Virus record (IMG/VR): IMGVR_UViG_3300021363_000001
Location: 1-13,621 of that record
Length of the DNA: 13,621 nt
Strand: one strand, 5' to 3'
DNA from: a virus
Taxonomy: Duplodnaviria; Heunggongvirae; Uroviricota; Caudoviricetes
Shown: positions 10,258 through 13,621 of the stretch, piece by piece
Layout of the letters: every line of letters begins with the position of its first letter
How positions within the stretch are numbered: the first letter of the stretch is position 1
Made by a program: the position numbers and the translations under genes
Notes under the pieces: model-generated
The model's input: only the letters and a program-made list of their open reading frames with translations
What the model was told of the DNA's origin: nothing
Database searches by the model: none

Positions 10258-11331
10258 ATGAAACATGAAATTATTATCCGGATGCTTGAGCCGGTGATCC
10301 ACAAGACTCCTCTTGCACGCAGCTATTCAACAGGGAACATCATGAAAGTTCTCACATCTGACAACAAGATCGAGGAGTTTTCAAGTTCAGAATATCTGGC
10401 GCGCGCGAGCACCAACAACCCTCTTCCCATTGCCTGGAGTAAGCCTATTGATTTTGGCGTTCTCTCAAGCATGGAACACCGCTTTACCTATGAGACATTC
10501 ATTGATAAGGACGGATACGAGGTGGGCATTGACACCCAGAACAAGGATTTAAAAAAGGCTTATGAAGAGTTCTGGTGTAAGCATCCAAACACTGTTGTTA
10601 ACGGTGTAGGTCATGCCAATACAAAAAATCCGCTGTTCAATTTGATTGATACCACAGCACAGACCATCCAGGGACTTGTTGACTACGACAATAAACTTCG
10701 TATCGCCAACCGTATCCAGGAGATGAGCTTTGATGAAAAGCGTGACGTGATGTATTTCTTTGGCAAGAGTCCAGTTGGAAAACTGGACGGTGAGTTAAAG
10801 ATGCTGCTTGCTGATTTCACTACCGGCCTGTGCTTCCAGGGAGCCAACACAGAAAAGTTTTTAGCTGTGTGGATGAATGCGTCTTCTCATCCGGATCGTG
10901 ACATGCGTGTTACACTTCGTAAAGCCATCGAGCTGAATGTTATTCAGAACAATCCGAAAAATGGTCTTGAGAGTTATTACCTGGGACAATCACCAATCGG
11001 TAATTCCATTGATGATTTGATCGGGTACTTCAAAAAAGAAGATGCGCTGTTCAAGGAATTCGTTGAAAGAGTAGTTCACGACAAGGAAGATATTTCTCTT
11101 GAAGCTGACAACAGCCTGATACTTGATAAGGCGGTGAGTAAAGGAAAACTTGGCGTAATGAATGATGGTGAGATCACCGATCTTCGGCGTCAGGCAAAAC
11201 AACTCAAGGACGAAGGATTTATTGACAAGGGCTTCAACCATCACTCAGCAAAAGTTGTGCGTCTGATGGAAGAGATTGAAAAAGGCAGCAAGCTGAAGCA
11301 GGAAAAAGAACGCGCTGCAGTAACTAATTAA
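10258..11331 (+). CDS. conserved capsid-module protein, 357 aa, function unknown
   Basis: RVTLRKAIELNVI...YYLGQSPIGNSIDDLIGYFK resembles the protein encoded after the capsid gene in crAss-like phages (recalled, not searched). Confidence 0.6.
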   Translation: MKHEIIIRMLEPVIHKTPLARSYSTGNIMKVLTSDNKIEEFSSSEYLARASTNNPLPIAWSKPIDFGVLSSMEHRFTYETFIDKDGYEVGIDTQNKDLKKAYEEFWCKHPNTVVNGVGHANTKNPLFNLIDTTAQTIQGLVDYDNKLRIANRIQEMSFDEKRDVMYFFGKSPVGKLDGELKMLLADFTTGLCFQGANTEKFLAVWMNASSHPDRDMRVTLRKAIELNVIQNNPKNGLESYYLGQSPIGNSIDDLIGYFKKEDALFKEFVERVVHDKEDISLEADNSLILDKAVSKGKLGVMNDGEITDLRRQAKQLKDEGFIDKGFNHHSAKVVRLMEEIEKGSKLKQEKERAAVTN

Positions 11332-11893: not shown

Positions 11894-12280
11894 ATGAAAA
11901 TATTTCTTGATGACGTGCGGGAGCCAGCTGATTGTATTGGTTATATGTATAGAAGAATTGGTAAAGACAATTTACTTTATATCGAAAAGTGGTGCGTAGT
12001 GAGAAATTATTTTTCATTTATTGGACTGGTTCAGCTCTGTCAAGAAAATAATATTGAGATTACCCACATTTCTTTTGATCATGATCTTGGCTATGTCATG
12101 ACTGAAGACCAGGGCAAAATTATTATTGCCGATGATTACAAAGAAGAAGACAAGACAGGATTGGACTGCGCTAAATTTATAAAGGAATTGTATCAGCGCG
12201 AAGGAAAAAAATTACCAATAATGTTTGTCCACTCAATGAATCCTGTTGGCACCCAACACATCATTGATCTTTTTAAATAG
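11894..12280 (+). CDS. cyclic-phosphate-processing receiver-domain-like protein, 128 aa
   Basis: IFLDDVREP...ISFDHDLG...TGLDCAKFI...VHSMNPVG...I matches the stand-alone receiver-like family linked to RNA repair systems. Confidence 0.8.
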   Translation: MKIFLDDVREPADCIGYMYRRIGKDNLLYIEKWCVVRNYFSFIGLVQLCQENNIEITHISFDHDLGYVMTEDQGKIIIADDYKEEDKTGLDCAKFIKELYQREGKKLPIMFVHSMNPVGTQHIIDLFK

Positions 12281-12825: not shown

Positions 12826-12906
12826 TCCCGGATGAGGGAGTCGAACCCCCACGCTTTACGCACCAGTTTCTAAAACTGGCGTGGCTACCAATTACACCAA
12901 TCCGGG
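12826..12906 (-). tRNA. tRNA-Leu(TAG)
   Basis: CCCGGAT/ATCCGGG, A73; CCAGT-TTTAGAA-ACTGG; GGGGG-TTCGACT-CCCTC. Confidence 0.95.
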
Positions 12907-12910
12907 AAAT

Positions 12911-12940
12911 AAAAAAAGCCCCCTGTTTCCAGGAGGCTTT
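12911..12940 (-). terminator. attenuator terminator directly upstream of the tRNA array
   Basis: AAAGCCUCCUG-GAAA-CAGGGGGCUUU plus a U7 tract ending 4 nt before tRNA-Leu(TAG). Confidence 0.9.
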
Positions 12941-12967
12941 CATATGCACGTTCTTTTTTTAGACTTT

Positions 12968-13045
12968 CTAATGATCAAGCAATGCATGGCCTCCCGCTGT
13001 TGTGAGCGAATAACTAAAGGAGAGACATAACAAATTTTTGATCAT
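12968..13045 (-). CDS. 25-aa attenuator leader peptide MIKNLLCLSFSYSLTTAGGHALLDH (not in ORF track)
   Basis: Lies between a promoter and the terminator; codons 5-14 are only L/C/S/F/Y; contains the antiterminator strand GGGAGGC. Confidence 0.8.
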   Translation of the reverse strand: MIKNLLCLSFSYSLTTAGGHALLDH

Positions 13046-13049
13046 GGGG

Positions 13050-13080
13050 AAAATGTAATTAATTCATATAACGGTACAAA
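13050..13080 (-). promoter_or_regulatory. promoter for the leader and tRNA array
   Basis: TTTG (13080-13077) - N19 - TACATTTT (13057-13050, one mismatch to TAnnTTTG); ATG 4 nt downstream. Confidence 0.6.
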
Positions 13081-13102
13081 AAAAAATTTGTTACTTTGTG
13101 AT

Positions 13103-13363
13103 ATGGGACAGGTTGAGATGTATGAGACCATCACCGGAGAGATGCTGCCAGTGAAAAAGAAAAAAACAAATCCGCTGCTGAAGGCCTACGGCCCAGGGCC
13201 AGAAGGGAAAAAGTGCGGCCAGTGTGAGCATCACTATTTTAAGAGAATGTCAAAAAGCTATCCCAAGTGCGCGTTGCGAAAAAATACCTGCGGCCCAAAA
13301 ACAGATCACAGCAGCCGCTTTCCAGCTTGTGGAAAATTTATTTTAGAAAATCCTTGCATATAA
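13103..13363 (+). CDS. Cys-rich putative metal-binding protein, 86 aa (start revised to MGQVEM)
   Basis: YGPGPEGKKCGQCEH...KC...TDH...ACGKF pattern; preceded by TTACTTTG-N4. Confidence 0.75.
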   Translation: MGQVEMYETITGEMLPVKKKKTNPLLKAYGPGPEGKKCGQCEHHYFKRMSKSYPKCALRKNTCGPKTDHSSRFPACGKFILENPCI

Positions 13364-13384
13364 AGAAACTTCTTTTTTCATTTG
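13354..13384 (+). promoter_or_regulatory. possible promoter for the second leader
   Basis: TTG (13354-13356) - N20 - TTCATTTG (13377-13384, one mismatch). Confidence 0.35.
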
Positions 13385-13412
13385 CAGTTCAATAAAAGAA
13401 AAAACATCTTCA

Positions 13413-13499
13413 ATGTTCAAAGTAAGAAATACAGAGAAAACGTGGTGCACCGATGGTGGCATGGCGATAGCTGTGATTAATACCGGATCAGGGGGATAA
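13413..13499 (+). CDS. 28-aa putative attenuator leader peptide MFKVRNTEKTWCTDGGMAIAVINTGSGG (not in ORF track)
   Basis: Ends 31 nt before a terminator that precedes tRNA-Trp; its last codons complement the terminator 5' strand. Confidence 0.7.
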   Translation: MFKVRNTEKTWCTDGGMAIAVINTGSGG

Positions 13500-13530
13500 C
13501 GACTTTTGCATATTAACAATTTAGCAAGCG

Positions 13531-13562
13531 CCCCCGATCTTAAAAGTCGGGGGTTTTTGTTT
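13531..13562 (+). terminator. attenuator terminator upstream of tRNA-Trp
   Basis: CCCCCGA-N9-TCGGGGG followed by TTTTTGTTTT. Confidence 0.85.
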
Positions 13563-13565
13563 TCT

Positions 13566-13621
13566 ACAGGTTGTGGGCTAAGGTAGCCGAGCGGATTCCA
13601 AACCCGCAGGAGTGAGTTCGA
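13566..13621 (+). tRNA. tRNA-Trp(CCA), truncated by the window end
   Basis: D-stem GGCT/AGCC; GCGG-A-TTCCAAA-C-CCGC; T-stem GTGAG-TTCGA; the 3' half and exact 5' end cannot be seen. Confidence 0.7.

Follow-up and report, generated by a model that had tools for sequence, protein, structure and literature searches.

A putative ribosome-mediated attenuator ahead of an eleven-gene tRNA block in a crAss-like phage

Within the stretch of DNA analysed here (the window, comprising the first 13,621 nt of a single-contig phage genome of 77,621 nt, or 77.6 kb), we identified a short leader ORF, an intrinsic terminator and a competing upstream RNA pairing, placed together directly ahead of a block of tRNA genes. 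From sequence comparison and folding models, we propose that this unit, R1, probably functions as a ribosome-mediated transcription attenuator gating the eleven-gene block, whose tRNAs would be made when their cognate codons are read slowly. Within this proposal, the promoter, the translation of the ORF, the kinetic competition of RNA structures and the regulatory outcome are the components that we infer.

The tRNA array and the R1 leader

All tRNA genes were found to be confined to genome positions 12280-15541. ARAGORN predicted 19 tRNAs, to which Rfam searches and hand folding added Cys-GCA, Ser-UGA, Ser-GCU and Ala-UGC, together with a doubtful Ile-UAU. The R1 block comprises 11 tRNA genes in the order Trp, Thr, Met, Ile-GAU, Glu, Gly, Ile-UAU(?), Ala, Val, Lys and Arg-UCU, ends at genome position 14579, and yielded no terminator between its Trp and Arg-UCU genes. 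Its Ala and Ile-UAU members were called by hand; the latter could not be aligned with the second CAT tRNA of a relative phage, L069, and may have decayed.

The tRNA-Trp gene opening the block is atypical, with a short D-arm and an Rfam score of 31.5 bits as compared to 63.7 bits for the tRNA-Trp of the relative; the two genes are ~65% identical, whereas the leaders preceding them are 98% identical. Also identified was a tRNA-like piece at genome 13797-13882 (L001 1798-1883), kept in the relative (L069 4355-4440), with a perfect T-arm located ahead of a D-arm-like segment; this could represent a tRNA that is permuted or split, or an element involved in processing. Furthermore, a cREC_REC gene (PF20274, cyclic-phosphate processing receiver; window 11894-12280) abuts tRNA-Tyr tail to tail, an adjacency that may link the tRNA array to the repair of cleaved tRNAs.

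The 28-codon leader ORF with TGG as its eleventh codon, as described in the original prediction, is present ahead of the R1 tRNA genes (Table 1), and its codon content mirrors the block that follows. Of the 27 codons beyond the start, 21 are cognate to tRNAs of the block (P = 0.004), and each of these tRNAs is represented (11/11, P = 0.008), covering 10 amino acids and including AGA for Arg-UCU as well as both ATT and ATA for the pair of Ile tRNAs. The leader is thus enriched in codons tied to the product that it would regulate, the link running from codon to tRNA gene and not from codon to biosynthetic enzyme. Given the doubtful status of the Ile-UAU gene, codon statistics were rerun without it: the joint P for cognate fraction and coverage, 3e-4, remained at or below 7e-4 when this hand-called gene was omitted or when strict wobble rules were applied. 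When the 645 ATG-initiated ORFs of 20-40 codons encoded on either strand of the whole genome were compared, only the R1 leader reached both values. The six noncognate codons correspond to tRNAs of other blocks, with TTC, TGC and TCA being read by tRNAs of the left block, and AAT, GAT and AAT by those of the Asp-Asn block.

Table 1. Features of the R1 unit and of its sister units. Positions refer to the window unless marked as genome positions.
Feature	Position	Strand	Remarks
Conserved region upstream of leader: candidate promoter and A-rich 5' UTR	13365-13412	+	43/48 nt identical in L069
R1 leader ORF, 28 codons, MFKVRNTEKTWCTDGGMAIAVINTGSGG then stop	13413-13499	+	TGG is codon 11
Antiterminator 5' strand GGAUCAGGGGG	13485-13495	+	within last ORF codons; pairs with 13531-13540
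Variable spacer, holding CGACUUUU (13500-13507), 5' strand of second pairing	13500-13529	+	least conserved part of R1 unit
Intrinsic terminator: hairpin 13530-13554 and U-run 13555-13563	13530-13563	+	9 pairs (6 G-C), 7-nt loop, then TTTTTGTTTT
tRNA-Trp(CCA)	genome 13568-13637 (window keeps 13568-13621, 5' part)	+	ARAGORN and Rfam, whole genome
Unit L leader MIKNLLCLSFSYSLTTAGGHALLDH then stop	12968-13045	-	then Leu-UAG, Leu-UAA, Phe, Ser-GCU, Cys, Ser-UGA, Tyr
Unit L terminator	12914-12941	-	directly ahead of tRNA-Leu(UAG)
Unit P leader (V/M)KQFATHQQPRPRSNPAVQLL then stop	genome 15609-15674 (L001 3610-3675)	-	terminator directly after; Pro, Gln, His, Arg-ACG
Unit R2, 60-codon ORF ending NNNNDDNP then stop	genome 14582-14764	+	terminator directly after; Asp, Asn

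Upstream of the leader, the conserved region includes TTG-N19-TTCATTTG, one mismatch away from a Bacteroidota-type TAnnTTTG box. The exact box is absent ahead of the R1 leader in this genome, so that the promoter assignment is one that we only infer. The start context of the ORF is A-rich, a property kept in the relative, and lacks a Shine-Dalgarno sequence, as would be usual in a Bacteroidota host. Between the two divergent leaders of R1 and the leftward unit (window 13103-13363) lies an 86-aa, Cys-rich (zinc-finger-like) gene which is missing in the relative phage, and whose product had no match in Pfam or PHROG.

Terminator, competing pairings and folding model

Located between the leader ORF and the tRNA genes, the predicted terminator was borne out as a hairpin (-15.6 kcal/mol) followed by a T-run, with tRNA-Trp beginning 5 nt further on. 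This spacing is too short for a promoter to fit between, eliminating the independent promoter between position 13562 and the tRNA that would have spoken against attenuation. Also upheld was the predicted complementarity between the end of the leader and the 5' strand of the terminator: GAUCAGGGGG pairs with CCCCGAUC (13485-13495 with 13531-13540) through 10 pairs and one bulge, at -16.6 kcal/mol. In 38 of 2000 dinucleotide shuffles, the 116 nt upstream gave a duplex of such strength with the 5' arm of the terminator (P = 0.019). This alternative pairing would sequester the 5' arm of the terminator, and its upstream strand would be covered by a terminating ribosome.

Equilibrium folding of the full transcript always favours the terminator, so the R1 switch must be kinetic. 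We therefore consider a folding model of the nascent RNA truncated after the terminator 5' arm, in which a ribosome footprint was set at each codon. The modelled probability of the antiterminator was 0.99 without a ribosome and for A-site codons 1-21, fell at codons 22-23, and remained at 0 for every position from codon 24 on, the stop included. The earlier proposal that a ribosome arriving at the ORF end frees the terminator is thereby reproduced by the model, the footprint covering the antiterminator strand from codon 24 to the stop. No anti-antiterminator (1:2) or pause hairpin that would impose termination on an untranslated leader, as in the classical trp/his/phe type, was found for R1, the ribosome-free nascent RNA folding into the antiterminator at the probability given above (0.82 in L069). 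Lacking an effective 1:2 element, R1 would represent a two-state variant, in which the model predicts read-through to be the default and termination to require a ribosome that keeps up with the polymerase.

The original prediction also placed emphasis on the single TGG codon, an emphasis not sustained by the present analysis. Only one codon in 28 specifies tryptophan, which is thus not singled out; with cognate codons present for all 11 tRNAs of the block and stalls anywhere in codons 1-21 being equivalent in the model, each leading to the antiterminator, the signal would be overall decoding speed rather than tryptophan.

A second complementarity had been predicted as well, and it exists: CGACUUUU in the variable spacer pairs perfectly with AAAAGUCG (13542-13549) over 8 bp at -9.8 kcal/mol, and together with the first pairing constitutes, topologically, a pseudoknot. 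In L069, 3 of the 8 pairs are broken and uncompensated, reducing the energy from -9.8 to -0.5 kcal/mol; hence, of the two helices of an H-type pseudoknot, helix 1 is kept and helix 2 is lost. The pseudoknot is consequently unsupported, as the second pairing is not conserved in the sole relative and the switch in the folding model operates without it.

Sister units and conservation in a relative phage

Four units were identified in the genome (R1, L, P and R2), in each of which a short ORF, rich in codons of its own block, is followed by a terminator and the tRNA genes. The assertion that the leftward attenuator follows the same logic with an unrelated sequence is supported, and the combination of codon-to-block mirror and terminator extends to all four units. 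In the L leader, the cognate run LLCLSFSYSL (10 codons) uses only codons of the 7 leftward-block tRNAs; the corresponding runs in P and R2 are HQQPRPR (7) and NNNNDDN (7). None of 20000 random draws gave cognate runs of 10, 7 and 7 codons. A 4 x 4 comparison of leaders with blocks paired every leader with its own block and with none of the other three, and the four strongest terminators of the region were those ahead of the four tRNA blocks. The R2 ORF starts 2 nt past tRNA-Arg-UCU, the whole R2 unit spanning genome 14582-14819 (L001 2583-2820), and unit P is kept in the relative (L069 6629-6800). The arrangement of unit P, comprising a -7-like box, CCCC and then GTG, suggests a nearly leaderless mRNA. 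The L leader gave a weak match to the Rfam Phe_leader family (RF01859) at 38.4 bits, below the 55-bit threshold. In the model, units L and P come closer in appearance to classical attenuators, their sensor run being located in a region 1; R2, like R1, is predicted to be a two-state switch.

The phage is a crAss-like phage from soil. It encodes a crAss-type muzzle protein, whose closest homologues carry Pfam crAss_MUZ and CrAss_Ring domains, and the phage sequence is present in soil metagenomes; among the sequencing runs that contain it, none is recorded as RNA. Also encoded are a distant portal, an integrase and a PurZ-like enzyme. The latter, a PurZ-like adenylosuccinate synthetase (phrog_1211), adjoins a GIY-YIG homing endonuclease on the minus strand (genome 15692-16852 and 16815-17438), and hints at a 2-aminoadenine genome.

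Searches for relatives were largely negative: megablast and blastn of positions 12900-13621 against phage collections gave zero matches, as did tblastn of the portal against the phage collection; IMG/VR protein scans with the upstream 86-aa protein, a 357-aa protein and the portal revealed no relatives; and a scan of viral and JGI metagenome contigs for a back-translated leader pattern and a tRNA-Arg pattern gave no match. PurZ relatives in IMG/VR were found without adjacent tRNAs, and the nearest PurZ homologues (56-58% identity) occur in bacterial contexts. More distant muzzle relatives (P0124, P0128 and P0129; loci L071-L073) are 39-43% identical to the muzzle protein of this phage, and their loci have no space for a tRNA array upstream of the muzzle gene (10 kb visible in two, <2 kb in the third). 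In another crAss-like lineage (L068, a 78,977-nt contig), a mini-ORF, MYNTREINSNSSLRLRRRRIL followed by a stop, lies at 10892-10957 on the minus strand ahead of Arg-UCU and two Arg-ACG tRNAs; a clear terminator is absent. The phage group of L068 also encodes a class-I aminoacyl-tRNA synthetase and HisRS-like genes (L062, L063, L065).

The one informative relative, L069, is a soil-metagenome contig of 80,874 nt (80.9 kb) whose muzzle protein is 66% identical to that of this phage. Against a background nucleotide identity of 71-79%, an 80% cut-off leaves L069 matching the region only in islands that correspond to tRNAs and leaders. The tRNA blocks of this genome recur in it in unchanged order. 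The R1 ORF is identical at 85 of 87 nt and the peptide is identical, with both changes being synonymous, in third positions and still cognate (AAA>AAG, ACC>ACT). This conservation has a binomial P of 1e-7 against a 78% background, and places the leader among the most conserved of 12,579 sequence windows. Changes in the terminator are compensatory, a C and a G having been lost jointly and T.G having given way to T-A (-15.6 to -12.1 kcal/mol); in the antiterminator, a G.U becomes G-C and one G-C pair is lost (-16.7 in L069 vs -16.6 kcal/mol). With a single relative and nearly unchanged antiterminator strands, covariation support is thin, being confined to the G.U to G-C replacement and the single pair lost. 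The folding model yields the same pattern for L069 as for this genome, with a lower plateau (P = 0.82). The other L069 leaders are alike in kind (SLFCLSLSYSL, HQQPRPRSNPAV, and NNNDDNP followed by a stop), the last forming the tail of an unrelated 144-codon ORF that is itself preceded by TACATTTG-CAAA-ATG. L069 lacks the 86-aa gene and has no plus-strand gene upstream of R1, its L and R1 leaders standing back to back within 385 nt. The R1 terminator thus cannot be merely the end of that upstream gene, and this layout also implies that transcripts of the block must start just before the leader.

Proposed mechanism, competing readings and significance

In the proposed mechanism, transcription would begin in the conserved 48 nt ahead of the ORF, and a ribosome would translate the 28-codon leader as RNA polymerase proceeds. 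The emerging terminator 5' arm would pair with the antiterminator strand unless the ribosome occupies codons 23 to stop. A lagging ribosome would permit the antiterminator and hence read-through into the tRNA block, upon which RNase P would free tRNA-Trp, 5 nt past the U-run; a ribosome keeping pace would cover 13485-13495, allowing the terminator to form, and the block would not be made. Since no tRNA of the block is without its codon in the leader, the time needed to translate the leader would report a shortage of any such aminoacyl-tRNA, resulting in negative feedback of the block on itself. The dispersed sensor also fits a two-state design, as any slow codon among 21 would delay arrival at the end of the ORF.

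Other readings of the R1 unit account for part of these observations. The completely conserved peptide would suit a functional micro-protein, and a terminator that always wins at equilibrium would suit a constant leaky terminator that sets a fixed low read-through or guards an RNA 3' end, next to an unrelated ORF (encoding a micro-protein or nothing) and with translation irrelevant. We regard this as rather unlikely given the codon match to the tRNAs of the block, the same mirror in three sister units with very different leaders, the position, right where the ORF ends, of a stable complement to the 5' arm of the terminator whose energy is conserved, and the lack in L069 of an upstream gene for the terminator to end. 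Conservation of 98% at the nucleotide level exceeds the need of coding constraint alone, and could instead reflect a non-coding regulatory or processing element, in which the conserved 140 nt would function at the RNA level, be it as a leader bound by a protein, tRNA or RNase or as an sRNA whose 3' end is the terminator, the ORF being incidental. However, both substitutions are synonymous and at third codon positions, no Rfam family including T-box matches the R1 unit, and the correspondence between codons and tRNAs would be left without explanation, rendering such an element improbable.

The presence of both complements (-16.6 and -9.8 kcal/mol), with tRNA-Trp as the first gene of the block and TGG as codon 11, speaks for a tryptophan-sensing attenuator with a pseudoknot antiterminator formed from both pairings (13486-13495/13531-13539 and 13500-13507/13542-13549). 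Such an attenuator is nonetheless highly improbable, in that only one of the 28 leader codons is for Trp, the modelled outcome is the same wherever in codons 1-21 the ribosome stalls, and the second pairing decays in L069 (3/8 pairs, uncompensated) where the rest of the unit is kept; the 2-nt link between the 3' strands also appears to leave little steric room for a helix of 9-10 pairs. Each single R1 statistic is only moderate (P 0.004 to 0.05), as might be expected if an ordinary terminator ahead of a tRNA array had acquired a random ORF and a random complement. Such a coincidence is barely credible in view of the joint P of about 3e-4, the presence of the design four times in the genome, and conservation in L069 far above background. 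Ribosome-mediated attenuation is the reading that we prefer.

Literature searches returned no description of tRNA genes being controlled by leader-peptide attenuation. A leader attenuator of the Escherichia coli pheU/pheV tRNA-Phe genes was considered as a precedent and dropped, as these genes have leaders of 3-4 nt (PMC7049720) and a further source is silent on such control (PMC3082878). Searches of positions 13400-13567 against Rfam leader families (Trp, His, Phe, Leu, Thr) and T-box yielded a single hit, a match of 12.8 bits that is attributable to chance and concerns a 5' UTR family unrelated to these.

Among enterobacterial multivalent attenuators, the ilvGMEDA leader senses Ile, Leu and Val, and the thr leader senses Thr and Ile. 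R1 shares with these a short multi-amino-acid leader, an intrinsic terminator, a competing antiterminator and a decision set by ribosome position. Unlike them, it is found in a phage, would control tRNA genes instead of enzymes, with a product feeding back directly on the sensed decoding step, has codons for 10 amino acids (11 tRNAs) scattered over the ORF and not in a run, and is without an effective 1:2 anti-antiterminator. With the trp attenuator (trpL, RF00513) and the Bacteroidetes trp leader motif, R1 has in common a Trp codon in a leader before a terminator and termination favoured by a ribosome at the stop; it differs in having a single TGG in place of tandem Trp codons and in lacking an Rfam leader match. 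With only two states, R1 is also predicted by the model to be read through when translation is abolished, unlike classical attenuators, as exemplified by the untranslated trp leader, which terminates more. The leftward unit of this genome shares its logic and its place directly ahead of a tRNA block with R1, but concentrates its sensor in a compact run of 10 codons and has a classical pairing between regions 1 and 2, in contrast to the dispersed sensor and two states of R1. T-boxes are likewise terminator/antiterminator switches reporting tRNA status, yet they bind uncharged tRNA directly, are untranslated, and control synthetase or amino-acid genes. Finally, in E. coli pyrBI and pyrE, as in R1, the outcome is set by how closely the leader ribosome trails RNA polymerase, with no 1:2 structure; the logic is opposite, a close ribosome blocking the terminator to give read-through and the signal being UTP-dependent polymerase pausing.

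Phage tRNA arrays are usually viewed as helpers for codon usage or as a counter to tRNA-targeting defences, and to our knowledge little has been established as to how their expression is controlled. Leader codons that mirror the downstream tRNAs offer a testable mechanism, in which tRNAs would be made when their own codons are decoded slowly, and R1, with 11 tRNAs and 10 amino acids, is the most multivalent unit in this genome. The combination of a codon-matched mini-ORF and a terminator before a tRNA block may also serve as an annotation rule for metagenomic phages. More speculatively, and with considerable doubt, the leader could be regarded as a 'test track' that times the ribosome over the codons of all eleven tRNAs, R1 being one of four sensors for a block-by-block, host-independent tRNA supply that could switch on replacement tRNAs once the host's pool has been depleted by one of its defences, an anticodon nuclease for example. 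If true, this would represent a general principle of control for phage tRNA arrays, unpublished to date.
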